Positions 5,802-62,705 of a DNA stretch of 64,000 nucleotides are shown one piece after another. The DNA is taken from assembly GCA_036229005.1 (NCBI GenBank), contig JAZAMN010000014.1, forward strand, positions 39,785 through 103,784, given 5' to 3'. Made by a program: the position numbers and the translations under genes. The stretch is from Myxococcota bacterium (GTDB taxonomy: Bacteria; Myxococcota_A; UBA796; CAJQPC01). Below the pieces are notes generated by a model. That model had not been told where the DNA came from, ran no database searches, and worked only from the letters and a program-made list of their open reading frames with translations. Position 1 is the stretch's first letter; each line of letters opens with the position of its first letter.

Positions 5802-6527
5802 TCAGAACTCCACGCCGCAGTGCCCCTCCCCATCGACATGCCCGACGGTCTGGGTCAGGTGCCGCACGAACGCCGCGAGGTCCTCGACCTCCGAGTACTG
5901 GCCGACGCTGTAGCCCAGCGGCGCCAGGGAGACGGCCTCCAGCTCGTCCAGGGTCACGCTCCCGTCGGCGTCGGCGTCGGCGTTCACGATGGGCCAGCCC
6001 TGCAGCACGGCGTCGTCGGCCTCCAGGGCGTCGTAGAACAGGTGGTCGCCGTGGACGGTCAGCTCCGTGGTGACCTCGCCGGCGGACGGGACCGTCAGGG
6101 CGTCGGGCTCACACAGGTAGGTCGTGGTGGTGGAGAAGGACCAGTCGAACGCCACGGTCTCGGCCTCCTCCCCCTCGCCGCAGCTCAGCTCACCGGCCAC
6201 GTGCACGCTGTCGCTGGCGTCGGGCGCGATGACGAAGCGGGCCGTGGTGTAGGTGCCGGCGGGGACCTCCACGCTGCCCAGGTCGTGCGGGCCGACGGGC
6301 ACCAGGTCCACCCGCGCGGGCTCCAGGTCGGCCACCGCGTCGCCGTTCCCGTCCAGGAGCTGGCCCTCGGTGATCTCCACCTCGAAGCTGGAGAAGGTGA
6401 CCGAGCAGCCGTCGCTGAACTCCGCCGCGGGGATGCCGGTCTCGATGTAGTCCTCGCCCCAGGTGTCCACGGTCCAGGTGCCGGTGCTGCAGGCGATCAG
6501 CGAAAAGATGAGGGAGAAGGAGGGCAT
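5802..6527 (-). CDS. Putative metal-uptake lipoprotein (DUF4382-like)
   Basis: Lipobox LIAC; HGDHLFYD and C-terminal GHVDGEGHC; EF-hand-like DADADGSVTLDE; last gene of the nikR operon. Confidence 0.7.
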   Translation of the reverse strand: MPSFSLIFSLIACSTGTWTVDTWGEDYIETGIPAAEFSDGCSVTFSSFEVEITEGQLLDGNGDAVADLEPARVDLVPVGPHDLGSVEVPAGTYTTARFVIAPDASDSVHVAGELSCGEGEEAETVAFDWSFSTTTTYLCEPDALTVPSAGEVTTELTVHGDHLFYDALEADDAVLQGWPIVNADADADGSVTLDELEAVSLAPLGYSVGQYSEVEDLAAFVRHLTQTVGHVDGEGHCGVEF

Positions 6528-7190
6528 TCAGGGCTCCAGGGTCAGGCTGTAGGTGGGGGTGCTCAGGGCACCGAATGAGAAGCTGTTCTCGACGCCGTCG
6601 TCCGCTGCGGTGAGCAGGCCGTCGTCGTCGCTGTCCGCGCTCAGGTCCACCCAGGACAGGGCGTGGGCGGGGTCGAGGGAGAGGACCAGGGCGCTGGGGG
6701 GATCCGTGCTCACCACCTGGGCCTCCAGGGGCAGCCCGGTCACCTCGGCATCGCTCTCGACAGCGAGGTCAAAGGGATGCAGCGCGCCGTCCAGCTCGGC
6801 GACGCCCTGGAGGCGCAGGGTCCCGGCCAGCTCCAGGCGTCCGGTGGCCAGCTCCCCCTCGTAGAGCTGCAGCGTGCCCAGGTCCTGGTCGCTGAGCAGG
6901 TCCAGCTCCCACTCCCCCAGCAGCTCGCCCAGCACGCCGCCCGCGCTCTCGTGGCCGGGGTGCGCGTGGGCGACGGAGATGGGGGAGAGGTGCCGCAGCA
7001 GGGCGCTCCCGGTGTCCTGGGTGCTGCTGGCGGGGGACTCCAGGCGCAGGCTGCCGATGGTCCAGGTGGCCTGCTCCAGGGTGGCGGTGCCGCCGTCCTC
7101 CAGGGTGAGCGCGGCGGGGGAGGCCTCAAAGCGCGCGGGCAGCGCCAGCAGGTCGCGGTCGGGCACGCAGGCCAGCATCCAGAGCCACAT
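6528..7190 (-). CDS. Putative metal-binding lipoprotein
   Basis: True start inferred at ATG 7190 (MWLWMLAC) from the TGATG overlap with the receptor stop. Contains AHAHPGH. Confidence 0.75.
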   Translation of the reverse strand: MWLWMLACVPDRDLLALPARFEASPAALTLEDGGTATLEQATWTIGSLRLESPASSTQDTGSALLRHLSPISVAHAHPGHESAGGVLGELLGEWELDLLSDQDLGTLQLYEGELATGRLELAGTLRLQGVAELDGALHPFDLAVESDAEVTGLPLEAQVVSTDPPSALVLSLDPAHALSWVDLSADSDDDGLLTAADDGVENSFSFGALSTPTYSLTLEP

Positions 7191-9184
7191 CAGAAGCGCC
7201 TCGTCAGGGTCAGGCGAGCGACCCGGGGGGCCCCCGCGGTGAAGTGCCGGGCGGGCAGCTCCGAGGCGGTGCTCCCCGCGACCCAGTTGGACGCGTAGAC
7301 GAACTCGCCGTCTCGCCACTGGTTGCCCAGGATGTTGTCCACCGAGAGCCCCACGCCCCAGGACTTCCAGGCGACCTGCGCGCGAAGATCGAGCACGAAC
7401 GCCGGGTGTGACGAGAACCCGCCCGGCAGGGGGCGGCGGCCCAGCACCCAGCCCCGGAGGCCGGCGGTCAGGGTGGTGGGGCCCAGGGGCAGGCCGGTCG
7501 CGTAGAGCCCGGAGCTGAGCAGCAGGCGCGGCGCGTAGGGGATGTCGGCGCCGGTCTCGGTGTAGCGGCCCAGGCTCCAGGTCCCGTCCAGCTCCCAGCG
7601 CAGCCGCTCGATGGGGCGCACCTGCAGCCCCGCGTCCACGCCCACCCGCCGGGTCGAGCCGGTGGCCAGGTAGCGGGCCTCCAGGTGGTCGAACACGATC
7701 TCGTCGCTCACCCAGGTCGCGAAGCCCGCGCCGCGCCAGGAGAGCCAGGGCAGTGGCGCGCTGCGCAGGCCCAGCTCCATGCTGTCCGAGGTGGCCATGG
7801 GCGCGCGTCCGCTGGCGGTGGTCCCGGCCAGGGTGGGGGAGCGGTAGCCCCGCCCGTAGGCGAGCTGGAGCTGGGTGGCCCGCTCCTCGAAGAGCTGCAG
7901 GCTCAGGCGGGGGGCCAGCGCGGGGGCCCAGGCGCGGATGCCCTCCGGGGCGACCAGGAAGGCGCCGCCGCGCAGCGAAGGCTCCACGCGCAGCCAGGAG
8001 GTGGGGTGGAGGGGGAGGCTGATCCAGCCCTCGGCGCCGGCGCTCACACCGCTCAGGCTCTGCTGGAGCGCGAGCACCTCGCCACCGGTGTCCACCGTCG
8101 AGGTGCTCTGATCCACGGAGTCCACCCGCAGGCTGCCGCCGCCCAGCAGCACCATCCCGGGTCGCAGGGTGCGGCTCCCGTCGCCCACCAGCCCGGCGCT
8201 CAGTGCCTCGTGCGCCTGCAGCGTGCCGTCGCCGTTCTCCGCGTCGCTCAGGTAGCCCGTGTAGTTCTGGGTGAGCTCCAGCCGCCGCAGGCCCGCCCAG
8301 CCCGTGAGGCTCCACGCGCTGCCCTGGTGGCTCTGGGACAGCTCGGCGGCCGCCAGCACCCGCTGGGACAGCCCCCCGCCAGACCCCGCGTAGGCGTCGT
8401 AGAAGTCCACCTGGTCCGCTGCCAGCATGTCCTCGCGCAGCACACCGGGGCTCTCGAAGTTGCCGTGGTAGGCCAGAGCCCAGATGCGGTGGTCCACGGA
8501 GCCTCGGGTGCCCTCCCAGCCGGCTCCTGCCCGGAGCTGCTGGTAGCCGCGGGACATGCCCACGCCCTGTCCGCCCTCGAGCTCGGCGATCGCGAAGCTG
8601 CCGCTGGGAGCGTCCTTGGGCCGGTAGCTCAGGCTGGCCTCGCCGCTCAGGTCGCTGCCCACGCCCAGGGTGAGCTGGGCTCCGGGCTGCGAGAGGCCCA
8701 GGGAGAAGTCCGCCGAGCCCGCGACCGCGAAGTCGCCTCCTTGTGGCGCGTAGCTGCCAGGGCGCAGCAGCACGCCGGACAGCAGCGCGGTGGGCAGGAA
8801 GTGCAGGTCCAGGTAGCCGTGGGCGTGCACGTTGGAGGGCTCGTTGAGCGGCACGCCCTCCAGGGTCACGGCCAGGTCCGCGCCGTGCACCGCGTCGAAG
8901 CCGCGCAGGAAGTACTGGTAGGCCTTGCCCTCTCCGCCGTGGGCCGACTGGTGCAGCCCCGGCATAGCCCGCAGCACCTGGTCGGCGGAGCGGGCGGGGA
9001 GGGCCTGGATGTCCTGGGCGTCCAGGCTGCGCTCGGAGGCGCTGGAGCGGGTGCGCGGGGCCTGGACGACCAGCACGTCATCGGCGCTCTCGTCGTCTGA
9101 GCTGGGCTCGGCCGCCTGGCTCTGGCTGGCCAGCAGGAGGACGCCGGCCAGCGGGAGGGCGCGGAGGGAGCGGGGCGTGCTCAC
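7190..9184 (-). CDS. TonB-dependent receptor, probably nickel/cobalt
   Basis: Signal peptide, TonB-box-like DVLVVQA, plug motif QYFLRGFDAVHGAD...HAHGYLDLHF, C-terminal GAPR...RF. Confidence 0.9.
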   Translation of the reverse strand: MSTPRSLRALPLAGVLLLASQSQAAEPSSDDESADDVLVVQAPRTRSSASERSLDAQDIQALPARSADQVLRAMPGLHQSAHGGEGKAYQYFLRGFDAVHGADLAVTLEGVPLNEPSNVHAHGYLDLHFLPTALLSGVLLRPGSYAPQGGDFAVAGSADFSLGLSQPGAQLTLGVGSDLSGEASLSYRPKDAPSGSFAIAELEGGQGVGMSRGYQQLRAGAGWEGTRGSVDHRIWALAYHGNFESPGVLREDMLAADQVDFYDAYAGSGGGLSQRVLAAAELSQSHQGSAWSLTGWAGLRRLELTQNYTGYLSDAENGDGTLQAHEALSAGLVGDGSRTLRPGMVLLGGGSLRVDSVDQSTSTVDTGGEVLALQQSLSGVSAGAEGWISLPLHPTSWLRVEPSLRGGAFLVAPEGIRAWAPALAPRLSLQLFEERATQLQLAYGRGYRSPTLAGTTASGRAPMATSDSMELGLRSAPLPWLSWRGAGFATWVSDEIVFDHLEARYLATGSTRRVGVDAGLQVRPIERLRWELDGTWSLGRYTETGADIPYAPRLLLSSGLYATGLPLGPTTLTAGLRGWVLGRRPLPGGFSSHPAFVLDLRAQVAWKSWGVGLSVDNILGNQWRDGEFVYASNWVAGSTASELPARHFTAGAPRVARLTLTRRF

Positions 9185-9588
9185 GCGGGGGCGGCGCCGC
9201 TGATGACCAGCTCACCGGAGAGCACACCCTTCATGGTGGCCAGGTGGTGGGCGTAGTGCTCAAGCTCGCTGCGGGTGCCCTTGAGGGCGGAGATCTCCAT
9301 GCAGGTGTCGTGGTCCAGGTGCACGTGCATGGTGGACATCACGATGTCGTGGTGATCGTGGGCGGCCTCGATCATGCGCTCGGCCAGGGCCCGCTTGCGG
9401 TGATCGAACACCACCGTCAGGCTGCCGGCCACCAGCGTGTCGCTCTGCAGCTCGCTGCGCAGGCGGGCGCGGATCATGTCGCGCAGGGCCTCGCTGCGGT
9501 TGCCGTGGCCGGCCTGGGCCACGTGCTCGTCCAGGCGCTGCAGGAGCTCCCGGTCGATGCTGATGCTGATGCGCTCGATGTCGGCCAT
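9181..9588 (-). CDS. nikR: Nickel-responsive regulator NikR
   Basis: RHH motif RISISID...NRSEALRDMIR; Ni-binding H...MHVHLDHDTCME. Start placed at MADIER (9588). Confidence 0.93.
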   Translation of the reverse strand: MADIERISISIDRELLQRLDEHVAQAGHGNRSEALRDMIRARLRSELQSDTLVAGSLTVVFDHRKRALAERMIEAAHDHHDIVMSTMHVHLDHDTCMEISALKGTRSELEHYAHHLATMKGVLSGELVISGAAPA

Positions 9589-9630
9589 CGGTATTACTCC
9601 GCTCGGGTTTTTCGTATTGTGTATTACCAG

Positions 9631-9657
9631 GAGGGGCTCAGTAATACTCAAAACAAC
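9631..9657. promoter_or_regulatory. NikR operator
   Basis: Perfect inverted repeat GTATTAC-N13-GTAATAC, 43-69 bp upstream of nikR. Extra half-site GTATTAC at 9591-9597. Confidence 0.8.
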
Positions 9658-9709
9658 GCAAGTTGCGCCGCGTTCAGGAGATCCACAGCTCCCGGGTTAG
9701 ACGGCCCCC

Positions 9710-11791: not shown

Positions 11792-11800
11792 TCGACCCCC

Positions 11801-16114: not shown

Positions 16115-17086
16115 TCAGTATCCGCAGTCCCCGAGCTCCTGGTTGTCGGCGGAGAGCGCCGGGTCTCCCGCGTAGGTCCAGGTGTCGGCGCAGGTCGTGA
16201 ACCACAGCGCCTTGTCCTGGTCCAGGATGCGGTAGCTGCCGTCTGTGTTGAACTCGACCACCCAGAAGTTGTCGGCGTCGTAGCGTGTGGCGGCGACGAC
16301 GTAGTGGGGGAAGTCGTAGTTCTCCTGGGCCAGCCAGCGGTGCGTGTGCCCGACCAGCGCCATCGCCAGGTTGTCGCGGCCCTGCAGCACCGAGAACACG
16401 TCGGGGTAGGGGCCCTCGGGGTCCTCGTCCTTCTCGGTGATCAGCGGCAGCATGTAGTGCGCCATCCAGACCGTGGGCTTGCCCTCGTCGAGCTGCTCCG
16501 CCATCCAGGCGAGCTGCTCGCGCCCATAGCTGGCCTTGCCCGTGTCGCAGCGGGGGTCCCCAGGGTCCCAGGTGGGCCCCAGCATCGAGTTCGCCGCGAT
16601 GAAGCGCCACCCCCCGTGGTCCACCGCGAACCAGGGCTCGGCGTCGAACAGCCTGGCAAAGAGCTGGTGGGAGAACTCCCGGCTCCACCCGCCGCCCTCG
16701 CAGTCCAGCTCGTAGTCGTGGTTGCCCCAGATCGGGTAGACCGGGGCGTCCAGCTTGCCCAGGATGTCCTGCGCGCGGGTGAACCCGGTCTCGTTGTCCT
16801 CGAACCAGCCCAGCTCCTCGGAGTGGTAGCTGTCGTGCACCACGTCCCCGAGCACAAACACCATCTCCACCGGCGGCTCGATGGCGTTGATGGCCGCGAC
16901 CGTCGCCTCCGCGCGCTCCACCGTCTTCATGATGGAGGCGTTGTCCAGCTCCCCGTTCTCGGAGGGCTCGGTGTACTGGGGCCCGATGATGTGCGTGTCC
17001 GCGACGAACGCCACGCGGAAGCTGCCGGAGGCCGGCGCGGTGTCCTCGGGGGGCTTGTCGGTGCAGGCGAGCGCGAGCAGGAGCAT
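16115..17086 (-). CDS. Calcineurin-like metallophosphoesterase lipoprotein
   Basis: ADTH, LGDVV, GNHD, GHTH motifs. Start inferred at MLLLALAC. Confidence 0.85.
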   Translation of the reverse strand: MLLLALACTDKPPEDTAPASGSFRVAFVADTHIIGPQYTEPSENGELDNASIMKTVERAEATVAAINAIEPPVEMVFVLGDVVHDSYHSEELGWFEDNETGFTRAQDILGKLDAPVYPIWGNHDYELDCEGGGWSREFSHQLFARLFDAEPWFAVDHGGWRFIAANSMLGPTWDPGDPRCDTGKASYGREQLAWMAEQLDEGKPTVWMAHYMLPLITEKDEDPEGPYPDVFSVLQGRDNLAMALVGHTHRWLAQENYDFPHYVVAATRYDADNFWVVEFNTDGSYRILDQDKALWFTTCADTWTYAGDPALSADNQELGDCGY

Positions 17087-17154
17087 GCCCGGAGGGTACA
17101 CCCCGCGCTTGGGGCCGACACGCAGCATTTCCCCCCTCGTGACCCAAGGGTTTC

Positions 17155-17574: not shown

Positions 17575-18813
17575 ATGATCCCGCTGCTGCTGTCCCTTCT
17601 CGCCTGCAACCGCACCCAGCCGGAGAGCCCGGTGGTGCAGGACTCGGACACCGGGCCCTTCTACGCGCCCGCGGTGGACTGCGGGGAGCGCGTGCTGCCG
17701 GAGCAGGGGACGCTCTACCGCTGGCCCTACCTCCAGAATCCTCAGCCTGACGGGATCACCGTCATGTGGGGCACCACCGCCGAGCGCAGCGCGACCCTGC
17801 TGTGGGGGGCGGACGCCAGCCTGGGGGAGCGGGCCACGCCGCAGGTACAGGCCATCACCGACCTGGACCCGCTGATGAACCTGCAGCACGTCACCCTGAG
17901 CGGGCTGGAGCCCGGCACCACCTACTGCTACGGCCTCGAGGTGGACGGGCAGGTCGTGGCCAGCGGGCTCAGCTTCCAGACCGCCCCGGAGAGCCCCCGG
18001 GCCCCGCTGCGCTTCATCGCGCTGGGCGACTACGGCAACGGCAGCCCCGAGCAGATGGCGGTGCTGGAGGCCATCAAGCGGCACAGCGACGGCGTGCACT
18101 TCTGGGTGACCCTGGGCGACAACGCCTACACGGATGGCCTGCACCCGGAGTTCCAGGAGAAGGTGTTCGCCGTCTACCAGGAGCTGTGGCTGGACACGCC
18201 CGTGATGCCCACCCCCGGGAACCACGACTGGCGCGCGGGGAACCTGACCCCCTACCAGGACAACTTCACGGTCCCCCGCATGGTCGCCGAGCGCGACGAG
18301 CAGGAGGCCTACTACATCTGGCAGTGGGGCGCGCTGGAGCTGCTGGCCCTGGACTCCGCGGACTCGCTGCTCAACGTCAGCGCCCAGGACGGCGACGAGC
18401 TGGACTGGCTGGACCAGGTGCTGGCCACCGAGCAGGAGCGCTGGCGCATCGCGGCCTGGCACCACCCCGCCTACACCGGCCAGCCGAACCGGACCCCGGA
18501 GCTGCAGGTGGTCCTGGGCCTGCGGCCCGCCGTCGAAGAGGCGGGGGTCCCCCTGATCCTGACCGGCCACAACCACATGTACGAGCGCTTCTCCAACGTG
18601 AAGGCGGACCAGAAGGTGGAGCAGGGGAGCACCTTCATCACCAGCGGGGGCGGCGGCGCCAGCCTCTACGAGATCGGCCCGAACGAGCTGCTGGACGTGA
18701 ACGCCCAGGCCCACCACTTCCTGCTGGTGGATGTGGACGCCTGCACCATCCGGCTGCGGGCGATCTCGTCGGAGGACGCGGTGCTGGATGACTGGAGCAC
18801 CACGCGCTGCTGA
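17575..18813 (+). CDS. Purple acid phosphatase-family metallophosphoesterase lipoprotein
   Basis: FN3-like LEPGTTYCY; GDYG, GDNAY, GNHD, HHP, GHNHMYER. Confidence 0.9.
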   Translation: MIPLLLSLLACNRTQPESPVVQDSDTGPFYAPAVDCGERVLPEQGTLYRWPYLQNPQPDGITVMWGTTAERSATLLWGADASLGERATPQVQAITDLDPLMNLQHVTLSGLEPGTTYCYGLEVDGQVVASGLSFQTAPESPRAPLRFIALGDYGNGSPEQMAVLEAIKRHSDGVHFWVTLGDNAYTDGLHPEFQEKVFAVYQELWLDTPVMPTPGNHDWRAGNLTPYQDNFTVPRMVAERDEQEAYYIWQWGALELLALDSADSLLNVSAQDGDELDWLDQVLATEQERWRIAAWHHPAYTGQPNRTPELQVVLGLRPAVEEAGVPLILTGHNHMYERFSNVKADQKVEQGSTFITSGGGGASLYEIGPNELLDVNAQAHHFLLVDVDACTIRLRAISSEDAVLDDWSTTRC

Positions 18814-20021: not shown

Positions 20022-22174
20022 TGCCCTCGACCGCGCTGTTGGTCGTCGCAGGGCTCGCGCTGGGCGCGGAGCTGCTGGCGGTGCTCTGGCTCATCCCGCG
20101 TTCGCGCTCTCGGCGCCTGCTCAGCCTGCAGACCAGCGTGTGCTCCTGGGCGCTGCTGCACATGGTGGCGGTGCTGGGGTTGCGCCTGCAGCTCAACGCC
20201 GAGGCCGAGCTGCTGGCGAATGGTCTGCGCGCCGCTGCCGCGGTCCTCAGCGGCCTCCAGCTCGTGGAGGCGGCGCTGTGCTGGGCGCAGGTCGGGGACG
20301 CACGCGAGCGCCACCGGCTCTTTGGGCCTATGGGCCCGGTGCTGGCCCTGCTCGGTGTCCTGGCGGTGGTGGTGCTGGAGCCGCTGCTCGCGGGCAGCGC
20401 CTTGTCGGCGGTGCATCTGGTGGAGGCTGTGGTCGCGGTCGCGGTCTGCACAGCCCTCCTGCGACAGGCGCCCAAGCGTCTGCTGCGGCTGAACCCCAAC
20501 GGTCTGTTCCAGGAGCTCCCTTGGCTGCTGTTCACCTCGCTGGTACTGCTCAATGCGATGGTGTGGTTGCTCTCTGATGACCCGAGGGTGTGGATGGGCA
20601 GCCTGGCCCTCCACGCAGGCCTCGTCCTCCTCTGGGCCTGGTCAGCGGACCGCGCACACCCGCTGAGTCTGGGGCCTGGAAACGCGGGCGCGGCGTCCCT
20701 GCGGAGCCTCCAGGAGGCGCTGATCCTCTTGAACCGCGGTGGGATCGTGGACTACGCCAACCCGGCGTCGGTGCGGATGCTGGGGATGGACCTGACGGGC
20801 AGCGCCCTGACCTCCGTGTTGGAGGGCGGCACCCTCAAGCCCGGCCTGCGGCGGATGCGCAGCGGCTCCGGCGAGTGGCTGGATGTGATGTGCAGCCTGG
20901 CCCCCATCCACCTTGGGGGGGAACGCGTCGGCACGGCGGTGTCGCTGGTCGACATCGGGGAGCTGCAGGAGGCGCGGCGCTCGGCGGAGCAGGCGGCGCA
21001 GGCGCGGGCGGACTTCCTGGCAGTCATGAGCCATGAGATCCGCACACCAATGAACGGGGTGCTGGGGCTGGCCCACCTGCTCGCGGACACCCGGCTGGAC
21101 GAGACCCAGACCAAGTGGGTGGGGACGATGGTGCAGAGCGCCGATGCGCTGCTGGTCATGCTCTCGGACATCCTGGACCTCTCCCGCATCGAGTCGGGGC
21201 AGGTGGAGCTGGAGATGGTGGCCTGGGAGCCTCACAAGGTGCTGGAGGCCAGCCTGGAGGTGGTGCGGCCCCAGGCCGAGAGCAAGGGTCTGGAGCTGAT
21301 CCTGGAGGACACCGCGCTCCCATCGTTCGTCAAGGGCGACCCGACGCGCTTCCGGCAGGTGGTGCTGAACCTGCTCTCGAACGCGGTGAAGTTCACGCAC
21401 GAGGGGCGGGTGACCGTCCGCGCCGGGTGGGCGGATGGCCGCCTGAGCGTGCAGGTCGAAGACACCGGCATCGGCATCCCCGCCGAGCAGATCAGTGGCC
21501 TGTTCGACGCCTTCACGCAGGTCGACAGCTCCCACACGCGGCGCTTTGGTGGCTCGGGGCTGGGGCTGGCGATCAGCCGCAGCTTCGTGGAGATGATGGG
21601 GGGCCAGCTCACCGTCGAGAGCGCGGTGGGGTACGGGAGCTGCTTCGGTCTGGAGATAGACGCGCCCAGGGCCCGCGGAATCGTTCGGCGCACCAGCCCC
21701 ACGGGCACTCGGGTCGCCATGGCCAGGCTGCGGGTGCTCATCGTCGAGGACAACGCGGTGAACCGCATGGTGCTCAAGGCGATGCTCGCGAACCTGGGCA
21801 TCGAGCCGCTGGAGGCCGAGAACGGCCAGGAGGGGGTGGACGTGGTGCTGCACAGCCGCGTGGACGTGGTGATCATGGACCTGCAGATGCCGGTCATGGA
21901 CGGGTGGGAGGCCATCGGGCACATCCGACAGTCGCTGGGGGAACGGTCTCCCTGGATCGTGGCGCACTCCGCGAACGTGCGACAGGAGGACATCGCGCGC
22001 GCCCTGGAGGCTGGCGCCGACGACCACCTGGCCAAGCCCACAACCCCCGCCAAGGTGGAGGCCGCGCTCTATCGGGGGCTGCTCGAGCGCAGGGGGGACC
22101 TGCGGGGCAGCTCGCTGATGCTGGAGCCCGAGAACAACCCCTTCCGCGTCAACGCAACTGGAACCCGAGGGTGA
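20021..22174 (+). CDS. Membrane PAS hybrid sensor histidine kinase
   Basis: About 7 TM segments, PAS-like [16 protein letters not shown], receiver MDLQMP. GTG start overlaps the upstream TAG. Confidence 0.9.
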
Positions 22175-22976
22175 GCGCCGTGAGGTGGATCCAGTTGCGG
22201 TTGTAGCCGTCGCCGGGGCCCGTGTTGTCGTCGTCCGTCCCCACCGCGCCGCCGCCGATGTAGCGGAGGCTCAGGTACGCATCCACGCCGCTGTCCAGCT
22301 CCAGCCCCACGCGGGCGTTGGCGTCCAGGATGGCGCCGACCACGTCGTTGTTGTCGCCGTTGAGGTAGCTGATGGGCGCGTAGAAGCCGTCCGCCTCCAC
22401 CCCCCACCAAGCCTGCTCACCGAAGGGCTGCCGGGTGCGTACCTTGAGGATGGGGACCGGCCCGATGTTCCGGTTGCTGCGCTGCTGGGTGCCGTCCTCC
22501 GAGCGGAAGTCGATCACGGCGTTGCGGAGCTGCAGGCTCGCGCCGATGGCCAGCTCGCGGTCGGCCCCGGGCTGGAGGTCGTAGAGGTAGGAGGCGCGGG
22601 TGTAGGAGAAGCCGTAGCGCAGGGCCATGGGGGTGCCGGCGGCGAACACCTCGTCGTCCACCACCAGGTCCTCTTGCAGCAGCACCGAGGTCTGCAGGTC
22701 CAGGGGCTGGTAGAGCAGCACGATGCTGTGGCGCTGGCCCAGGTCCAGGTCGGCGCTCCAGCGGGTGGTCGCAAAGAGGTTGTCCTGGCCGCCGTCCTTG
22801 ACGTAGTCAAAGTAGGTGCCGTCCTGGTCGAACTGGATCTTGTGGGAGACGGGCAGCAGCGCGCCGACCTCGGCGTTCAGGCGGACCCGGGGGCCCTGTT
22901 GGCGGTCGCCGTTGAGCCAGGAGTCGTCGCGGTCGGGGGTGGTGGCCAGCGCCAGGGAGCTGATGAGCAGGAGCAT
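22149..22976 (-). CDS. Putative outer-membrane beta-barrel protein
   Basis: Short signal [11 protein letters not shown], alternating beta-strand pattern, C-terminal LTLGFQLR. Confidence 0.7.
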
Positions 22977-23082: not shown

Positions 23083-23592
23083 ATGCCCACTCTGCTGCTG
23101 CTGACCTTGGCCTGCGCCAAAGACGACCCCACCGACACCGCGCTGGACACCCAGGACCCTGGATCCGCCGTGGTGCTGCACATCAACGAGCTGATGGCCT
23201 CCAACAGCAGCGGCGTCCAGGACGAAGGCGGGGCCTACCCCGACTGGATCGAGCTCTACAACCCGGGCGACCAGGACATCGACCTGACCGGCTACCGCAT
23301 CACCGACGATCTGGACGAGCCCGACAAGTACATCCTGGCCGGCGTCACGGTCCCTGCAGGCGGCTATCTGCTGCTCTACGCGGACGGCGACACCGACGAG
23401 GGCCTGCAGCACCTGGGCTTCAAGCTGTCCAAGGACGGGGAGTCCGTGGGGCTCTACACCGTCGCCGACGAGCTGGTGGACTCGGTCCGCTTCGAGGCCC
23501 AGGAGACCGACATCTCCTACGCCCGGGTCAGCGACGGGGCCGCCGAGTGGGTCACCGACGACACCCCCACGCCGGGCGCCGCCAACGAGTAG
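23083..23592 (+). CDS. Lamin-tail domain (LTD) lipoprotein
   Basis: LHINELMASN, DWIELYNPG, HLGFKLSKDGE, TPTPGAAN; lipobox TLAC. Confidence 0.88.
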   Translation: MPTLLLLTLACAKDDPTDTALDTQDPGSAVVLHINELMASNSSGVQDEGGAYPDWIELYNPGDQDIDLTGYRITDDLDEPDKYILAGVTVPAGGYLLLYADGDTDEGLQHLGFKLSKDGESVGLYTVADELVDSVRFEAQETDISYARVSDGAAEWVTDDTPTPGAANE

Positions 23593-27888: not shown

Positions 27889-28518
27889 TCAGGAAACGGT
27901 GTTCTCCGTACGTCCAGCGAGCTCAGCGAGATCGGCGAGCCACTGGTGCAGCGTGGGCAGGTGGTCGATGGGAGGGGACTCTGCGCGGAGCACGCAGGGC
28001 GCGTCGGGGAAGAGCCCCTGGGCGTACATGGCCCGGTCATCCGTGCTGCCCAGGGAGAAGCGCAGCTCCGGCGAGTTGTTGGCGAGATCCATCAAGAAGG
28101 CGCGCAGCTCGGGCCCCGGCTGCAGGCCGTGGGGGATGCCCTCCCACACCTTGGAGAACTCCCGCCCGTGGGGCGACAAGCGGGTGCGGCGCAGCGTGCC
28201 GCCGAAGGGCTGCAGGTCCAGCGGCATCACGGCCACCAGCTTCTGGCCCAGGCGCACGGAGGCGGGGGCGTCGCTGCTGCTCGCTCGGTAGGAGGCGCTC
28301 ACCATGGCCTTGATCCGGACCGGGCGGCCCTGGGCGTGGCCCGCGAGCCAGGGCTCCGGCTCCACGGGGGTGAAGCCCCCAAGCGCGATCCGCTCGGAGA
28401 GGGCATCTCGGCCCGCCTCGGCGCGCCCGCGCTGCTTGAGACCGGCCCAGACGCCCAGCCCGATCGCCACCGGGAGACCCAGCGGGAGCAGGCAGGCGAG
28501 GCCGGTCAGCCAGTCCAC
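27889..28518 (-). CDS. Hypothetical membrane-anchored protein
   Basis: GTG start overlapping the upstream TAG; N-terminal TM segment. Confidence 0.65.
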   Translation of the reverse strand: MDWLTGLACLLPLGLPVAIGLGVWAGLKQRGRAEAGRDALSERIALGGFTPVEPEPWLAGHAQGRPVRIKAMVSASYRASSSDAPASVRLGQKLVAVMPLDLQPFGGTLRRTRLSPHGREFSKVWEGIPHGLQPGPELRAFLMDLANNSPELRFSLGSTDDRAMYAQGLFPDAPCVLRAESPPIDHLPTLHQWLADLAELAGRTENTVS

Positions 28519-29150
28519 TACTCGGCGATCAGCTCGAGGGAGCCGCTGACCTTGACCGCGTCCCCGATGGACTCGTGGGCGCACTCGGTGATCAGGGCCT
28601 GCAGGTTCTCACCCAGGCCGGCCGCGGCGATGGAGACCTCGAAGGGGGCCTTGCTCGCCAGGGTGTAGGTGGTCTCGCCGGTGCGGGTCAGGGTGGCCTC
28701 GAAGGAGACCGGGGCCTTTCCGGTGTAGAAGGCGACCTCGCCCGAGAGGGGCAGGGTGGTGCTGGCGCCCTGCTCCAGAGCGGGCATCTCCGGAAAGGTC
28801 ACGGTCCAGGTGGCGTTGGGGTGCTCGCCGGCGTGGAAGAAGGTGTCGTGCAGGCGCTGATCGCGCAGCTCCATGCCGGAGTTCCAGGTGGACACGGGGA
28901 TGCTCAGCTCGCTGGGCTTGCCGGAGAAGGCGATCTGTCCGGTGGGGGCGTCCACGGTGGCGCCGACCTCAGCGCTGCCGTTCTTGATCTGCACGAGCTG
29001 GAGCTGGCCGCCGCGCACGGTCAGGGGCTGCTGGGGTGCGGCCTTGGGCTCGGCCTCCTTGCCGGCCTCCGCGCTGGGGGCCTGGTCGCCTGCGGGGGCG
29101 GTGGACTCGGCGGGGGTGCAGGCGAGGGCGAGCAGGATCAGGGACAGCAT
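28518..29150 (-). CDS. YceI-like lipoprotein
   Basis: NSGMELRDQRL...FF..EHP YceI signature; lipobox ALAC. Confidence 0.8.
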   Translation of the reverse strand: MLSLILLALACTPAESTAPAGDQAPSAEAGKEAEPKAAPQQPLTVRGGQLQLVQIKNGSAEVGATVDAPTGQIAFSGKPSELSIPVSTWNSGMELRDQRLHDTFFHAGEHPNATWTVTFPEMPALEQGASTTLPLSGEVAFYTGKAPVSFEATLTRTGETTYTLASKAPFEVSIAAAGLGENLQALITECAHESIGDAVKVSGSLELIAE

Positions 29151-43560: not shown

Positions 43561-45240
43561 ATGATGACCCGCAGCACTGCCCTCAGGCTCGCTTGGACCA
43601 CCCCCCTCTGGCTGCTCGCCCTGGCCTGCACGGGCGTGGCCACGGACTCCGGATCGGACAGCTACGGCCCCGAGCCGACGGGCAACATGTGTGACCCCGA
43701 CACCCCGGAGGCCACCTGCGGCGACGAGCAGAGCTGCGAGCTGTGGGAGGGCAACGGCGCCTACTACTGCATGTGCCCTGAGGGCACCGAGCAGGTCGGC
43801 CGCGAGTGCTACGGGGAGGGCGAGGACAACCTCAAGCCCACGTGCAGCACCCTGGAGGAGGACGCCTGTGACGATGAGGGCTTCTGCTACGACCTGACGC
43901 AGGAGGCCTGCGACTACATGACCGACCGGGACATCCCCACCCCCTCGGAGTGCGATGTCATCGAGCCCTCCGGCGAGAACGACACCATCGGGATCTGTGT
44001 CAGCTCCACCCAGGACCCGTCCGCGAACCCCTACGCCCCGGACGCCGGCTACTGCGAGTTCACCCAGCAGTGGTCCAACCCCACGCACCTGCCCGTGGAC
44101 TGCCGCTGTGGCCAGCCCTTCGAGGTCAGCGAGTGCAAGCGCCCCTACGGCCTGGACGCCAGCATCTCCTTTGGTGACGGCCCGCGCTGGCGCTCCATCT
44201 CGACCTTCGAGCTCTTCGGCGCCGACCTGGACGGCCGCGAGATGATCGTGGCCGGGAGCTGGGAGTCCTCCACCCTGGACGACCAGGGCGTGGTCTTCGC
44301 CGTGGACCTGGACACCGGGGACCGCCGCGTCGTCTCCGGCAGCTTCCAGGACCCCTCTCTGGGCACCTACACCGAGGGCAGCGGCCCCGACTTCGTCAAC
44401 GCGTACAACGTGCGGCTGGGCGCGGACGGGGACTACTACGTGGTCGGCGCCACCGGACAGGCCGGCGCTCCCTACATCTGGCGCGTGGACCCCGACAGCG
44501 GCGACCGCGAGCTCATCTGGCAGGGCCGCAGCGACGGCGCGTTCGCCCCCTGTGCCAACGGCGTCCCCGAGTCCGAGGTCGGCACCAAGGAGATCAACTA
44601 CGACCCCATGTCCTGGACCATGGACGACGCCGGCTACCACTACTTTGGTGTGCTCGCTGGCGCCCCCGGTCCTGGCGTCGTGCGCGTGTCCCCCGACGGC
44701 GAGAGCTGCGACTACCTCACCCGCATCGTCCAGGACCCCGACAGCACCTTCGACGACGTCGGCGACGGCTACAGCGACATCCAGTTCTACTTCTCCGCCC
44801 TGGAGATCGTGGACGACACCATGTACGCGCTGTCGGACCGGCAGGTCTACACCATCGAGATGGACACCGGCCGCCGCCGGCTCTTCTCCGACGCCGAGTC
44901 GGGCACCGTGGGCTCCGGCACCAGCTCCCTGGGCAAGACCTGGCTCACCTGGGACCCCCACCACGACGTCCTCTGGTCCTACGGCAACCCCAGCAGCGAC
45001 AACATCCTGGTGGCCATCGACCCCGACACCGGCGACCGCACCAACGCCCCCTGCTGGCACCCCTACCAGGGCATGCTCGAGGGCTGCGCCGGCAACTCCG
45101 TGGGCATCGGCGGCGTCATGAGCATGGGCGGCATGGTCGTGGATCCCCAGGCCCCCCACGACCTCTTCAACGCCTTCGACGACCTGAGCGTCATCCAGAC
45201 CGACCAGGCCACGCTGAACATCAACATCCACTCGCTGTGA
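43561..45240 (+). CDS. Lipoprotein with Cys-rich N-terminus and beta-propeller-like C-terminus
   Basis: Lipobox ALAC; EGF-like CMCPEG; repeated (V/I)D.D(T/S)G.R blades; GGAGG RBS. Confidence 0.75.
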   Translation: MMTRSTALRLAWTTPLWLLALACTGVATDSGSDSYGPEPTGNMCDPDTPEATCGDEQSCELWEGNGAYYCMCPEGTEQVGRECYGEGEDNLKPTCSTLEEDACDDEGFCYDLTQEACDYMTDRDIPTPSECDVIEPSGENDTIGICVSSTQDPSANPYAPDAGYCEFTQQWSNPTHLPVDCRCGQPFEVSECKRPYGLDASISFGDGPRWRSISTFELFGADLDGREMIVAGSWESSTLDDQGVVFAVDLDTGDRRVVSGSFQDPSLGTYTEGSGPDFVNAYNVRLGADGDYYVVGATGQAGAPYIWRVDPDSGDRELIWQGRSDGAFAPCANGVPESEVGTKEINYDPMSWTMDDAGYHYFGVLAGAPGPGVVRVSPDGESCDYLTRIVQDPDSTFDDVGDGYSDIQFYFSALEIVDDTMYALSDRQVYTIEMDTGRRRLFSDAESGTVGSGTSSLGKTWLTWDPHHDVLWSYGNPSSDNILVAIDPDTGDRTNAPCWHPYQGMLEGCAGNSVGIGGVMSMGGMVVDPQAPHDLFNAFDDLSVIQTDQATLNINIHSL

Positions 45241-50637: not shown

Positions 50638-51552
50638 ATGTTCTTGATGCTTGCATCGCTCGCCCACGCCGACACCATCGAGGCCTGGTCCCAGGACGAC
50701 TGGGGCCGCGAGGGCTCGTTCATCGATCGGAACGATGACTGGCTCAATGGCTACGAAGAGGACCCCTGGTACGTGACCCAGAGCGGCGTCCTCATCCCGG
50801 AGACCGACCACAACACCAGCAACAGCGAGGATGCGCTGTTCAACTGGATCATCCACGAAGAGGCGGAGATCCAGCAGGGCCTGGTCCAGGCGGTTGTGTT
50901 CAACGACGACGACGACTCGATGGGCATCGTCTCCAACCACGATGGCGACCAGCGCTTCTACCTGCTCGTGCACAGCGCGGACTCGGTGCCCAGCGGGCTC
51001 GGGGACGCCGGGGACGGCCGCCTCTACCTGGTGCGCGTGGACGGCGAGGACTTCGAGGTGCTGGCCGACGCGGAGGCCGAGATCGGGGACCGCCCCTTTG
51101 GGCTGGAGCTGTCGGTGGACAACGGCGTGGTCACGGGGACCCTGGGCGAGGACATCCAGATCCAGGCCACCGATCCGGACCCGCTGGGCCCCGGTCTGGC
51201 CGGCTTCTGGTCCTACGACTCCGGCTATGACGGCTGGAACAGCGACTACTGCGGCGCCTCCGAGATCAACGTGTTCTGGCAGGACGAGGACGCCGACGGC
51301 GTCGCCGATGACATCGACAACTGCGAGGACGTGGCCAACGCCGACCAGGCGGACGCGGACGGCGACGGGGTGGGGGATGCCTGCTCCGAGGCCGGCGGCG
51401 ACACCGGCGAGACCGGCGGCGACGACACCGGGGCCGACGGTGAGCTGCAGATCTCCGGGAGCGCCTGCGGTGGCTGCGGCGGCGGCACGGCCGGCGGCGG
51501 TCTGCTGATCCTGGCTCTGGGCGCGCTGTTCACCAGGCGTCGGAGCGACTGA
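50638..51552 (+). CDS. Secreted protein with TSP3-like repeat and MYXO-CTERM-like tail
   Basis: DEDADGVADDIDNC...NADQADADGDGVGDAC; ACGGC-TM-RRR. Confidence 0.8.
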   Translation: MFLMLASLAHADTIEAWSQDDWGREGSFIDRNDDWLNGYEEDPWYVTQSGVLIPETDHNTSNSEDALFNWIIHEEAEIQQGLVQAVVFNDDDDSMGIVSNHDGDQRFYLLVHSADSVPSGLGDAGDGRLYLVRVDGEDFEVLADAEAEIGDRPFGLELSVDNGVVTGTLGEDIQIQATDPDPLGPGLAGFWSYDSGYDGWNSDYCGASEINVFWQDEDADGVADDIDNCEDVANADQADADGDGVGDACSEAGGDTGETGGDDTGADGELQISGSACGGCGGGTAGGGLLILALGALFTRRRSD

Positions 51553-53833: not shown

Positions 53834-55936
53834 CTACCAGCCGCTCGAGAGGCTGACGTAGGTGCGGCCGTAGCCCGCGGCGTAGCCGGGCTCGCCGACC
53901 ACGAGGTCCGGCAGGCCGTCGCCGTCGAAGTCTCCGGTGGCGAGCTCCACGCCGGTGCTGTCTTCGGTCGAGGGGCCGCGCCAGTGCATGATCGCGGCGT
54001 CCTCCCAGTCGCTCAGGCCGGCCACGCTCAGGTCCGCGCCGGAGACCAGGTAGATGTCGCCCTTTCCCAGGTAGCCGGAGACGGCGTCGGGCTGGACCAG
54101 GAGCAGGTCGTCGGCGCCATCCCCGTCCACGTCGCCGGCGTTGTGCATGGTGTAGCCCAGCAGGCCGTCGAGTCGGCTGCCGTCGGTCCAACTGTCGGCC
54201 TCGGCGCTGACGTCCTGGACGCCGCCGATCATGTCGGCTCCGGCGTTGGAGAAGAAGTAGACGGCGCCCGCCAGATCCTGTGCACCTTGGGTGCTGTTGT
54301 AGCCGCTCACCACAAGGTCCTGGATCCCGTCCCCGTCGAAGTCACCCTCGACCATCCGGAACCCGAACTGGCTGCTCTCCTGCCCCACGGCCGAGCTGTC
54401 GATGAGGTCGTCCAGGCTCACCTCTGTGTCAGCGCCGCTGGCCAGCGCACCGATGAAGTCCATGCGGCCCTCGAGCGCGTAGTCCCCGGTGTCCGCGGTG
54501 TCGCCGAGGTCGCTGGTGTACGCACTGGAGAGCACCACCAGATCCGGGCTGCCGTCGCCGTCCAGGTCGTCGGTGACGCCCGCCCAGGAGAGCTGGTAGG
54601 GCTGCCCGGGCTCGATGATGTGGGAGACCTCCTCCACCATCTCCAGGTCCCCGGAGTAGTCGCCGCCGGGCAGGATGACGACGCGCTCTTCGTAGTCGAA
54701 GGTGCTCTGGGTGGAGCTCCCGACCGTGAAGATGGCGTCCACCGCGCCGTCGCCGTCCACGTCGCCCAGGGAGAGCGTGCCGCTGGAGACGGAGGGGACG
54801 TCGGGCTCCACGCCCAGCTCCAGGCTGAGCTCGGCGTCCGCGTCGTAGCTGTCCAGTGCGGCCGCGAGCTGGGTGCCGTTGCCGTAGTAGACCAGCAGCC
54901 CGAACTGCTGCACGTAGGTGCTGCCGTAGTTGATCTCCCCGCGCTGGAAGAGCAGGTCGTTGTACCCGTCGCCGTCAAAGTCCACGCAGCCTGGGGAGAA
55001 GCCCACGAAGCCGAAGGTGTCGCCGGTGATCACCGCGTCCGCGTCGGCCATCGCCATGCCGCTGGTCCAGGTGCTGGCGTTCGCTCCGTAGAACACGCCC
55101 ACCTGGCCCGAGTAGCTGGACCCGAAGGGGGCGCCGACCACCAGGTCGTCCAGGCCGTCGTGGTCCAGGTCGCAGACGGTGACTCCGCGCCCGAGCAGCG
55201 CGTTGGTCGCCCCGCTGGTGTCGCCGGCGATGATGACGTCCGCGTCGTCCAGATCGAAGCGCGCGCCGTCCTTGCCGTCGCAGTCGGCGTCCAGGCCGTC
55301 CACCAGGTAGTCGCTGGCGTCCGGGTTCACCGCGGGGTCGCTGTCGTCGCAGTCCTCGCCGCCCTCGGCCGCGTCGTCGTAGCCGTCGCCGTCGGCGTCC
55401 AGCAGGTCCAGGCCGTCGCAGTCCTGGTCGATGCCATCCTTGGCGATCTCGGCCGCGCCGGGGAACACGGTCGCGTCGCTGTCGTCGCAGTCGGTCCCGC
55501 CGGCTTCGACGGCGTCGTATCCGTCGCCGTCCACGTCCAGCAGGTCCTCGCCGTCGCAGTCCTGGTCGATGCCGTCGTAGGGCAGCTCGGTGGCGCCGAG
55601 GTAGACCCCGGAGTCGGAGTCATCACAGTCCTCTCCTCCCTCGCAGGACTCCGCGTCCAGGTAGCCGTCCCCGTCGGCGTCGAAGCCCTCGTCCACGGCC
55701 TCATCGCAGTTGTTGTCCACGCCATCGCAGATCTCGGTGGCGGCGGGGTGGATGTCGGCGTTGTCGTCGTCGCAGTCGACGTCTTCGGTGTAGCCGTCGG
55801 CGTCCGCGTCCGCCCACTCGGGCTCGGTGTCCAGCGGGATGGTGTCCTCTGGGGGGGCGGTGTCGCGCGGCTCCACATCCTTGGCGCATGCGACCAGGCC
55901 CAGGGCGAGGACGAGGGAAGACAAGGGCAGACGCAC
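53834..55936 (-). CDS. Lipoprotein with MopE-like metal-binding motifs and FG-GAP repeats
   Basis: Lipobox LVAC; DCDD...PxA.E..DGID.DCDG repeats; GDFDGDG..DLVVG blades. Confidence 0.85.
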   Translation of the reverse strand: MRLPLSSLVLALGLVACAKDVEPRDTAPPEDTIPLDTEPEWADADADGYTEDVDCDDDNADIHPAATEICDGVDNNCDEAVDEGFDADGDGYLDAESCEGGEDCDDSDSGVYLGATELPYDGIDQDCDGEDLLDVDGDGYDAVEAGGTDCDDSDATVFPGAAEIAKDGIDQDCDGLDLLDADGDGYDDAAEGGEDCDDSDPAVNPDASDYLVDGLDADCDGKDGARFDLDDADVIIAGDTSGATNALLGRGVTVCDLDHDGLDDLVVGAPFGSSYSGQVGVFYGANASTWTSGMAMADADAVITGDTFGFVGFSPGCVDFDGDGYNDLLFQRGEINYGSTYVQQFGLLVYYGNGTQLAAALDSYDADAELSLELGVEPDVPSVSSGTLSLGDVDGDGAVDAIFTVGSSTQSTFDYEERVVILPGGDYSGDLEMVEEVSHIIEPGQPYQLSWAGVTDDLDGDGSPDLVVLSSAYTSDLGDTADTGDYALEGRMDFIGALASGADTEVSLDDLIDSSAVGQESSQFGFRMVEGDFDGDGIQDLVVSGYNSTQGAQDLAGAVYFFSNAGADMIGGVQDVSAEADSWTDGSRLDGLLGYTMHNAGDVDGDGADDLLLVQPDAVSGYLGKGDIYLVSGADLSVAGLSDWEDAAIMHWRGPSTEDSTGVELATGDFDGDGLPDLVVGEPGYAAGYGRTYVSLSSGW

Positions 55937-55967: not shown

Positions 55968-57494
55968 CTATTGACGGCGCCTCCGAAGCCCGACGAGCGC
56001 CAGCGCGCCCAGGACCAGAGCCAGGAAGGAGGCGGGCTCTGCGGTGCTGCTGCAGCCCTGCTCTTCGGTCGTGTCCGTCACGATGACATCGGCCAGGAAG
56101 TCGCAGGCGTCGTCGTCCTCGGAGCCGCTCTCGGCCTCGTCGATGAAGTTGTCGCAGTCGTTGTCGATGCTGTCGCAGTCCTCCTGCGCGCCCGGGAAGC
56201 TCCACGCGTCGTAGTCGTCGCAGTCGCCGTCGGCCTCGGAGTAGCCGTCCTGGTCATCGTCGAAGTTGAAGGTGCCCTCGTCGATGTTGTCGTCGCAGTC
56301 GTTGTCGATCTCGTCGGCCTCCTCCTTGGCGCTGGGGTTGATGGACGCGTCGAGGTCGTCGCAGTCGCCCTGCTGGTTGGTGAAGCCGTCGCCGTCGTCG
56401 TCGAAGCGGCGGGAGTTCTCGTCGACGTTGCCGTCGCAGTCGTCGTCGATCTTGTTGTTCTTGTCCTCTTCTGCGTCGGGGCTCACGGCGGGGTCGTCGT
56501 CGTTGCAGTCGCCCGCGTTCTCGGAGTAGCCGTCGCCGTCGTCGTCCTTGGAGACCTGGTCGGCGGCTTCGTCCACGACGCCGTCGCAGTCGTCGTCCAT
56601 GCCGTTGGCGACCTCCTGCGCGTCGGGGTGCACGCCGGAGAGCAGGTCGTCGCAGTCGTCGCCGCAGGAGATGAAGCCGTCGCCGTCCTGGTCCCAGGTC
56701 TCGTCCAGGCTGTCGGGGCACTGGTTGCCGACCAGGGTGACCTCGGGCTCGCCGTCGGGGTCCGAGGTGATGAGGGTGAGGGTGGCGCGCTCGGCGTTGC
56801 CGGTGGCGGGGATGTAGCCGACCTCGATGCGCTCGGTGCTGCCGGGGAGGATGTAGACGGGGTCGGGCGTCTCCACGTAGAAGGCGGTGGAGTCGTCGTC
56901 CTCGAAGCCGTAGCCGGCGATGGTCAGGACGACGGAGCCGGTGTTGCGCACCCAGACGTCGTCGTAGAAGGCGCCGCCCACCAGCCGCCGGCCGAAGTCC
57001 AGCTTCTCGGGGTAGGTGGAGCTGCGGGGGTAGCGGGCCAGGCCGCGGAGCTGGAAGATGTGGACGCCGCTGCCGTCGTGGAGGCCGTCCACCGGGTCGA
57101 TCCCGGTCACGCGGTTGTCGTTGGTGTCCAGGTAGACGGTGGCGCGGAAGTAGCCTTCGGTGGTGGGGCGGAAGCTGATCTCCAGCTCCTCGAACACGGA
57201 GAGATCCGTCGCGCCGGGCTCGAACTCCAAGGCGTCCATGACGCCGTCCTCGTCGTCGTCGGTGTTGGCCCAGGAGTCCAGCAGGACAAAGGCCTCCTCC
57301 TCCTGCTCGTTCACGACGGTGATCTGGTCCAGGCGCAGCTCGCCGCTGCCGACGCTGTAGAGGGGCACCCGCACGGTGGTCCGCTCGCCGACGGTGAGGC
57401 CGCCGCCATCGGCCAGAGGGGCGACCTTGAGCTGCCGGCGGCGCTCGGTCACGCTGTAGTCGGGCTGGCAGGCCAGAGCCAGGAGCAGCAGCAT
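55968..57494 (-). CDS. Lipoprotein with Ig-like (ASH-type) domains, MopE-like motifs and MYXO-CTERM tail
   Basis: MLLLLALAC; LDFG..NTG and TSDP Ig-like motifs; DCDD repeats; GCSS-TM-RRRRQ. Confidence 0.8.
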   Translation of the reverse strand: MLLLLALACQPDYSVTERRRQLKVAPLADGGGLTVGERTTVRVPLYSVGSGELRLDQITVVNEQEEEAFVLLDSWANTDDDEDGVMDALEFEPGATDLSVFEELEISFRPTTEGYFRATVYLDTNDNRVTGIDPVDGLHDGSGVHIFQLRGLARYPRSSTYPEKLDFGRRLVGGAFYDDVWVRNTGSVVLTIAGYGFEDDDSTAFYVETPDPVYILPGSTERIEVGYIPATGNAERATLTLITSDPDGEPEVTLVGNQCPDSLDETWDQDGDGFISCGDDCDDLLSGVHPDAQEVANGMDDDCDGVVDEAADQVSKDDDGDGYSENAGDCNDDDPAVSPDAEEDKNNKIDDDCDGNVDENSRRFDDDGDGFTNQQGDCDDLDASINPSAKEEADEIDNDCDDNIDEGTFNFDDDQDGYSEADGDCDDYDAWSFPGAQEDCDSIDNDCDNFIDEAESGSEDDDACDFLADVIVTDTTEEQGCSSTAEPASFLALVLGALALVGLRRRRQ

Positions 57495-59129: not shown

Positions 59130-59196
59130 TCGCCGATGCTACCGCGACGCGTGTTGTGCCGTCATCTGGGGGCTGCCCCTGTGCTATGCCGGGTCC

Positions 59197-59580: not shown

Positions 59581-59615
59581 GAGGGGAGTGCGCCCCCCAA
59601 AGGGAGCTGCGGGGG

Positions 59616-61070: not shown

Positions 61071-61156
61071 TCTTCCCTGCCGGTGTGCGTTTCTCCAGGG
61101 TATCCCCAGGATGGCGGGGCTGCATGGCCCGACGAAACCCTGACACGTGGTGGAGC

Positions 61157-62002: not shown

Positions 62003-62003
62003 G

Positions 62004-62705
62004 ATGCTGATCGCCCTGCTCGTCGCCTGCGCGGCCCCCCAGGAGGGCGTGTGGTGGGTGGCGCTGTCGATGGAGGAGGAGGCGAGCTGCGCCCAGACGG
62101 TCGCCCACAACTTCCTGGACGCGTCGGTCCCCGAGACCGAGGATCCAGAGGACGCCTGGGAGCGCATCGGGCAGACCTGGGAGAGCCCCGCGGGCTTCTA
62201 CGTGCTGGTGACCCAGGGGCCCGATGGGCTGGTCTGGACGGGGCCGGACACGGTGTACCTGGGCGACGTGGAGGACGGCGCCTGGACGCTGCAGCACTAC
62301 GCCTACGAGGGCGAGAGCGCCTTGGACAGCCACCCCAGCGGCTACCACTTCCAGCAGGAGGGGGAGAGGAGCGTGACGCGCACGCTGGACCTGACCCAAG
62401 CGGGCCAGGTCCTGGAGGGGAACCTCACCATCAGCACCGTGGACTCTGCGCGCTACTCGGAGGTCGAGGGGTGGGGCGAGGAGCTCGGGCAGAGCTCACA
62501 GCTCCCAGCCTCCAGCTACCTGGAGGGGCCCGAGGGCGCCGTGGTGGCCAACACCCGGGAGGGGCTGGAGTGCGTGGACGACCCCTGCGTGCTGCAGGTG
62601 GAGGCGCAGTGCTCGTGGTCTGGCGGGGTGGTCGCGCAGCTCACGGGGCTGAGCGCCGAGGCCTTTGACGGCGTGCTCGACGCGGGCTTTGACGCGGGAG
62701 AGTAG
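62004..62705 (+). CDS. Hypothetical lipoprotein
   Basis: MLIALLVAC; abuts the kdsA stop; AAGGAG RBS. Confidence 0.7.
   Translation: MLIALLVACAAPQEGVWWVALSMEEEASCAQTVAHNFLDASVPETEDPEDAWERIGQTWESPAGFYVLVTQGPDGLVWTGPDTVYLGDVEDGAWTLQHYAYEGESALDSHPSGYHFQQEGERSVTRTLDLTQAGQVLEGNLTISTVDSARYSEVEGWGEELGQSSQLPASSYLEGPEGAVVANTREGLECVDDPCVLQVEAQCSWSGGVVAQLTGLSAEAFDGVLDAGFDAGE

Follow-up and report, generated by a model that had tools for sequence, protein, structure and literature searches.

In a 64,000-nucleotide stretch of Myxococcota bacterium contig JAZAMN010000014.1 (the window), a series of predicted lipoproteins begins with a bare, uncharged hydrophobic run that reaches the lipobox cysteine by residue 13, and in the genome that holds the window (G000; 6.4 Mb, 70% GC, 94% complete) such leaders stand at about one gene start in nine. 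Proteins that carry them are very probably exported and lipidated. We give slightly better than even weight to a fuller reading, in which the leaders are minimal Sec signal peptides that feed the usual lipoprotein pathway, their erosion having been enabled by a prlA-like relaxation of SecY. Genes in G000 were called with a codon-model script of our own in place of a standard caller; it returned 5,293 genes and chose starts blind to lipoboxes. Short lipobox leaders were defined by a cysteine at residue 13 or earlier, with A, G or S forced at −1 and a hydrophobic residue forced at −3; counts of short leaders are approximate, as this filter misses cases such as the window gene at 23083 (Thr at −3).

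When first-cysteine position and n-region charge were tabulated across G000, as the original prediction of these leaders had proposed, an N-terminal lipobox was found in 819/5,293 genes and the position of the cysteine was bimodal. The short class holds 581 genes with a cysteine at residue 13 or earlier (403 at residues 8–10), and only 11 of them have a lysine or arginine in the leader; in the long class, 178 of the 238 genes do. The 570 short leaders without any Arg or Lys argue against a Tat twin-arginine motif. Short lipobox leaders make up 11% of gene starts, as compared to 0.17% (152/89,139) when the same pattern was scored at internal ATG, GTG or TTG codons, a 64-fold difference. After M-hydrophobic-[AGS], the next residue is cysteine in 335 cases, as compared to 26 with Ser, 26 with Thr, 29 with Gly and 86 with Ala, and the −2 residue of the lipobox is leucine in 67% of short but 27% of long leaders. 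Leaders of the signal peptidase I (SPase I) type have a short class too: 250 genes carry uncharged leaders of 8–16 residues (4.7% versus 0.76% in the control; 142 lack an upstream start), alongside 237 genes with conventional ones.

For 316 of the 581 short lipobox leaders there is no upstream ATG, GTG or TTG, the assigned start being the first possible one after an in-frame stop. Even CTG and ATH codons are absent upstream of 182, and an in-frame stop lies within four codons of 112. Some upstream start exists for the other 265 genes, and in 22 of these it is backed by a Shine-Dalgarno sequence (SD) and would give a leader of 35 residues or fewer with a lysine or arginine. An SD, a −10 box or translational coupling was found at 84% of short starts, versus 77% of all genes. 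As a separate observation, a TAnnnT box lies 4–8 bases before the start in 28/146 genes with the cysteine at residue 8 or earlier, in 4/209 with the cysteine at 15 or later and in 404/5,293 overall; such a box would be typical of leaderless mRNA.

Several lines of evidence point to the export of these proteins. BamA of G000 has a 15-residue uncharged leader whose start falls right after an in-frame stop; in comparison genomes its leader is 14 residues (G207), 19 residues and uncharged (G297) or conventional (G056 and G007). The leaders of BamD and LolA in G000 retain a basic residue. Among the 570 uncharged short lipoproteins, Ser/Thr-kinase, His-kinase and AMP-ligase motifs are absent (0/570) and a P-loop-like match occurs in seven, and passenger motifs are as frequent in short as in conventional lipoproteins (the calcium-repeat motif DxDGDG, 14.0 versus 14.6%; CxxCH, 5.1 versus 5.1%). 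Cysteine parity was scored in proteins with 1–10 cysteines after CxxCH proteins had been dropped. The number of cysteines after the lipobox cysteine is even in 152/204 proteins with the cysteine at residue 9 or earlier, 161/203 with it at 10–13 and 98/126 conventional lipoproteins, as compared to 131/269 proteins with cytoplasmic motifs, and counting the lipobox cysteine as well drops the even share to 20%. An even-cysteine bias is described in passages of PMC2823432 as marking oxidised exported proteins. The remaining cysteines would therefore be paired as in an oxidising compartment, with the lipobox cysteine as the odd one, and this unpaired cysteine is consistent with lipidation. MYXO-CTERM-like tails, for their part, occur in short SPase-I-type proteins at 13.6%, versus 0.7%, but the even-cysteine bias is absent from these proteins.

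Comparison between relatives gave a similar picture. The closest 29 homologues of the purple acid phosphatase at 17575 include cysteines at residues 8, 10, 10, 10, 10, 11, 13, 14, 15 and 16, in charged and uncharged leaders on the same tether, and the starts of its orthologues come from independent gene callers, which chose the same starts. Within G000, 15 proteins with short leaders have full-length paralogues whose leaders are long and charged. The original prediction that this lineage exports and lipidates proteins through minimal leaders is thus well supported at the level of sequence, by start statistics, BamA, passenger motifs, cysteine parity and short/long orthologues. Its further suggestion of an export "code" was not borne out: leaders show graded erosion, from 8 to 16 residues inside one orthologue family, and not a discrete code. 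BamD had been considered as a lipoprotein test case and was dropped. It is a lipoprotein in E. coli; BamD of G000 (C7:59665-60249) and its orthologues have an SPase-I-type leader without a lipobox in 5/5 genomes of the class, including a sister order.

The short leaders appear to be limited to one order and patchy inside it. A strict 8-residue DNA pattern was present in 5–90 copies in 15/44 genomes of the order and never exceeded four copies in any of 257 others, with 0–2 in reversed controls; the claim of lineage specificity therefore stands, and the leaders are not simply as frequent in other bacteria. A 9-residue pattern was present in 19/19 f6, 16/16 f1 and 2/7 f4 genomes. Leaders were also sampled in 36–100-kb stretches, leaving out G252 (48% GC, no genes called); G287 yielded no lipoproteins. 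Uncharged leaders with the cysteine at residue 13 or earlier made up 48/85 lipoproteins in seven high- or middle-trait order genomes, 3/36 in low-trait ones, 1/31 in sister orders and 0/20 in two other classes, sums that are descriptive and not a test, as the trait itself had been used to define the high, middle and low groups. A SecA tree, analysed under a simpler model with the approximately unbiased (AU) test, recovered the order as one clade (100/100). The 12 high-trait genomes require three changes on this tree, their union in one clade being rejected (p-AU 6e-7); a single gain and two losses may account for the three. One genome of another class, G240 (L208-L212), has short but charged lipoprotein leaders, with the cysteine at 11–16 and Arg or Lys near the start, possibly a separate case of shortening.

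The export machinery was searched for changes that could accompany the trait. G000 encodes SecA, SecYEG, SecDF-YajC, YidC, Ffh, FtsY and LolA, one LepB and Lnt identified by motif, two LspA proteins with both catalytic-Asp motifs present, and four Lgt homologues (C8:70960, C20:161356, C21:84375 and C52:307944). None of the four has E. coli His103 or Asn146, the first being replaced by Tyr, Met, Ile or Asn and the second by Cys; two of them have a distinct VHDH motif. The Tyr/Cys type of Lgt is common to sister orders with conventional lipoproteins and to many Bacteroidota, one set having been retrieved by that motif and so showing its spread, not its frequency. A change in the Lgt catalytic motif was rejected as a cause on the ground that outgroups share it, and an expansion of Lgt because the 81 order genomes have 2–6 matches whatever their trait level, and five outgroups 2–7. 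Duplication of LspA was rejected likewise, as the tandem lspA-lspA-lgt operon is the arrangement of Myxococcus xanthus (part of PMC8689077). Loss of the signal recognition particle (SRP) was set aside with Ffh and FtsY present and the family found in 81/81 genomes. Part of PMC6952399 reports that LspA of Pseudomonas aeruginosa and Staphylococcus aureus cleaves, in vitro, a lipopeptide in which the cysteine is preceded by five residues. The proposed modification of Lgt or LspA recognition is not supported, as copy number and motif type are common to outgroups, the operon is as in M. xanthus and ordinary LspA takes a five-residue leader.

Comparison of SecA, SecY, Ffh, Lgt and LspA did reveal a lineage-specific change in SecY; the Lgt and LspA changes and paralogues are not specific to the lineage. 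Residue 185 of G000 SecY corresponds, in an ungapped alignment, to E. coli I187, which passages of PMC2171872 place in the isoleucine pore ring. Among SecYs obtained from 28 of 30 genomes, this residue is Ala or Ser in 24/24 from the order and Ile in 4/4 from sister orders, and the Phe192 position is T, A, V or S in 24/24 from the order. A pattern scan of 301 genomes found A or S at SecY187 in 35/44 order genomes, 0/14 of the class outgroup and 2/243 others, and an aliphatic residue in 0/44, 12/14 and 164/243, respectively, with 88 genomes matching neither pattern. Cyanobacterial SecY may also have Ala at this position. Pore-ring changes are described, in parts of PMC3164448, PMC2585858 and PMC3518225, as the main class of prl alleles and as lowering the threshold for a working signal. 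The feature expected of a prlA-type SecY, a non-conservative substitution affecting the pore ring, the plug or the lateral gate, is present as I187A/S. As in E. coli prlA SecY, a pore-ring isoleucine side chain is lost, a class of change that lowers signal stringency; unlike it, the change is natural and fixed across an order.

In the reading we prefer, the n-region would have been lost and the hydrophobic core would run straight into the lipobox (M-L-L-L-L-L-A-C type). Precursors would enter a single SecYEG/SecA/SRP pathway, after which the cysteine would be diacylglyceryl-modified by Lgt, the leader cut by LspA and the product acylated by Lnt, as for conventional lipoproteins; these enzymes would act as usual because the lipobox is what they read. 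SPase I substrates such as BamA would have been shortened in parallel. The limiting step would then be channel gating and not Lgt or LspA, and the order-wide change of SecY Ile187 to Ala or Ser, with the neighbouring Phe192 made small, would amount to a naturally occurring relaxation of the prlA kind, allowing marginal signals to open the channel. With the channel so relaxed, leaders would have eroded to differing degrees, repeatedly, in several families. The acidic tether may orient the leader, and we conjecture that the membrane could accommodate the seven residues if the leader inserts only in part and its end is formylated and neutral.

A number of observations weigh against this reading. 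Eleven low-trait order genomes share the SecY change, yet none has the strict 9-residue pattern; the change is thus at most permissive, and of the proposal of a modified Sec system there stands an order-wide pore-ring change, as a correlate only, that low-trait members carry as well. Outside the order, G115 (C62) and G290 (C66), which share a genus, carry Ser at SecY187 and lack 8-residue leaders. The prlA sites named in the available part of PMC2171872 are G69, I191, I278, S282 and I408, I187 being absent from them, and the other five pore-ring residues are unchanged in G000. A screen for residues separating high- from low-trait genomes gave no clear separation in SecY (7 columns versus a shuffle maximum of 10), SecA (22 versus 22) or Ffh (7 versus 6). 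Statistically, the order is one evolutionary event and the link to SecY is a single coincidence. The short SPase-I-type proteins show no even-cysteine bias (85/164), and the RNA data, three short contigs in one run with no start information, were uninformative. We place a causal role of the SecY change just short of even. The broader proposal is more doubtful still: that a natural prlA-like SecY, fixed in one Myxococcota order, lowered signal stringency, and that hundreds of lipoprotein and secretory leaders eroded several times independently to 7–12 uncharged residues. These would be the shortest Sec signals in routine bacterial use, and their history a natural case of translocon–signal co-evolution.

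The strongest competitor, unlikely as we judge it, is that the proteins are exported and lipidated by ordinary machinery, a pure leucine core offsetting the missing charge and the acidic tether orienting the leader, with the SecY change an incidental marker of the lineage. A longer hydrophobic stretch can reportedly replace N-terminal charge (Hikita and Mizushima 1992, by its title as cited in PMC5427057). The same explanation draws support from the prevalence of leucine at −2 in short leaders, from the failure of the SecY change to track the trait inside the order, and from the in vitro cleavage of a five-residue leader by standard LspA (in the part of PMC6952399 cited above). Short cores are, however, shorter than long ones (4.8–5.5 versus 7.6 bulky residues) and only marginally more hydrophobic (best 7-residue window 2.76–2.82 versus 2.69), and the acidic tether is alike in short and conventional lipoproteins (net −1.8 to −2.2 over 15 residues). 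Leaders usable by any bacterium should also be common, yet the 8-residue pattern reached five copies only inside the order.

Another factor of the lineage could instead be responsible, be it an SRP or SecA surface, a YidC route, a retained neutral formyl-Met, a thinner membrane or an unrecognised chaperone, but this seems improbable. Order-wide substitutions at which the outgroup residue is absent are also found in SecA (10 columns) and Ffh (6 columns), and since seven residues, as a helix, cannot span the bilayer, an unusual topology is likely. Against such a factor, nearly all of 30 genomes have a single Ffh and a single SecA, the two deformylases of G000 are ordinary, and the screen of SecY, Ffh and SecA found nothing that tracks the trait. 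It is very improbable that the proteins are exported but retain the leader as an uncleaved anchor, or that Lgt does not lipidate the cysteine: although all four Lgt homologues lack His103 and Asn146, the Tyr/Cys type serves sister orders with conventional lipoproteins, and cysteine parity and the short/long orthologue pairs speak against it. Mis-called starts, with real ones upstream that add a basic n-region, are hardly credible and already refuted for most genes, for despite the 22 SD-backed alternatives and one at the window gene that starts at 17086, the genes with no upstream start or with a stop close by, the well-marked short starts and the agreement of independent callers on orthologue starts leave little room for them.

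If read as Sec/SPase II or SPase I signals, the leaders would work in the same way yet miss two defining features, the basic n-region and the length. Like lipoprotein signals of the E. coli Lpp type, they have a hydrophobic run, Leu at −3, a small −1 residue and an invariant cysteine, followed by a disordered acidic/Pro-rich tether, in a genome encoding Lgt, LspA, Lnt and LolA. Unlike them, they are 6–12 residues long without a basic n-region, have Leu at −2 in two thirds of cases instead of A, S, T, V or I, and are used by ~11% of all genes. Conventional lipoprotein signal peptides have 16–26 residues (part of PMC8689077) and SPase I signal peptides 20–30 with a positive n-region (part of PMC5427057). 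The short SPase-I-type leaders share the hydrophobic core and A-x-A site of the latter, on passengers that include BamA and OmpA/TonB-type proteins, but have 11–16 residues and no lysine or arginine. The M. xanthus pathway is similar in its tandem lspA genes in an operon with lgt, its several Lgt paralogues and its MYXO-CTERM proteins. Other sampled classes of the phylum, among which M. xanthus was not identified, differ in having no short uncharged leaders (0/20) and an aliphatic SecY187. Literature searches, with most subscription journals outside their reach and supplements unopened, returned nothing that describes such leaders in this lineage, and no such account appears in the available parts of PMC9360617, PMC9287161, PMC5427057 and PMC11495043. 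How small a signal peptide can be and what its basic n-region does have long been asked, and engineered mutants have supplied most of the answers. In this lineage, ~570 natural lipoproteins per genome, together with BamA, an essential protein, seem to manage without an n-region at half the textbook length, with a single SecY substitution as candidate enabler. Rules of the PROSITE type require a charged n-region and a cysteine at residue 15 or later, and predictors built on them would miss ~70% of the lineage's lipoproteins.

In the window itself, all 12 N-termini that had been claimed were found at their coordinates and strands. On the minus strand, 5802..6527 encodes a lipoprotein with an uncharged 13-residue leader including the cysteine, an ATG directly after an in-frame stop of the upstream gene and a weak DUF4382 match below cut-off. 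The lipoprotein at 6528..7190 (minus strand; Cys at 8) has a start that overlaps the stop of a TonB-dependent receptor gene (7190-9184), an arrangement of translational coupling. The purple-acid-phosphatase lipoprotein at 17575..18813 (plus strand; Cys at 11) has orthologues with leaders of 8–16 residues on the same tether. A lamin-tail-domain lipoprotein lies at 23083..23592 (plus strand; Cys at 11; GGAG SD) and a YceI lipoprotein at 28518..29150 (minus strand; Cys at 11; GGAG SD), upstream of which only ATA occurs. A MopE/Ig lipoprotein at 55968..57494 (minus strand; Cys at 9; GGAGG SD) and a lipoprotein at 62004..62705 (plus strand; Cys at 9), which starts one base past the previous stop, complete the set apart from the gene at 17086. 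The two SPase-I-like leaders, at 22149..22976 (minus strand) and 50638..51552 (plus strand; GGAGG SD; weak TSP3 match), are both uncharged and 11 residues long. As claimed, there is no in-frame ATG, GTG or TTG before the stop upstream of 6527, 17575, 29150, 50638, 57494 and 62004, and the upstream starts of 23083 and 22976 overlap a divergent partner gene or lack an SD. Conventional lipoprotein leaders, present alongside as had been stated, serve as internal controls at 43561..45240 (plus strand; Cys at 23, two Arg) and, on a MopE/FG-GAP protein, at 53834..55936 (minus strand; Cys at 17, Arg).

The start of the metallophosphoesterase lipoprotein at 16115..17086 (minus strand; Cys at 8) is ambiguous from the window alone, an SD-backed ATG at 17128 giving a 22-residue leader with lysine or arginine. 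Its orthologue in G102 (69% identity) has a 7-residue leader, and none of the 50 codons before it is a start codon, which favours the short start. The predicted passenger domains were confirmed for the purple acid phosphatase, metallophosphoesterase, lamin-tail, YceI and MopE/Ig proteins, the last with its C-terminal MYXO-CTERM tail; an outer-membrane barrel for 22976 was not, as the family search of window proteins gave no match for 22976, 7190 or 62004. The tail of the 57494 protein scores above cut-off, so that one protein carries two lipid-anchor signals, this and a short lipobox leader. The coupled operon at 5802-9588 (minus strand) combines a small regulator, which we take to resemble NikR from its motif, with the TonB-dependent receptor and two short-leader lipoproteins, and is a candidate metal-uptake unit.

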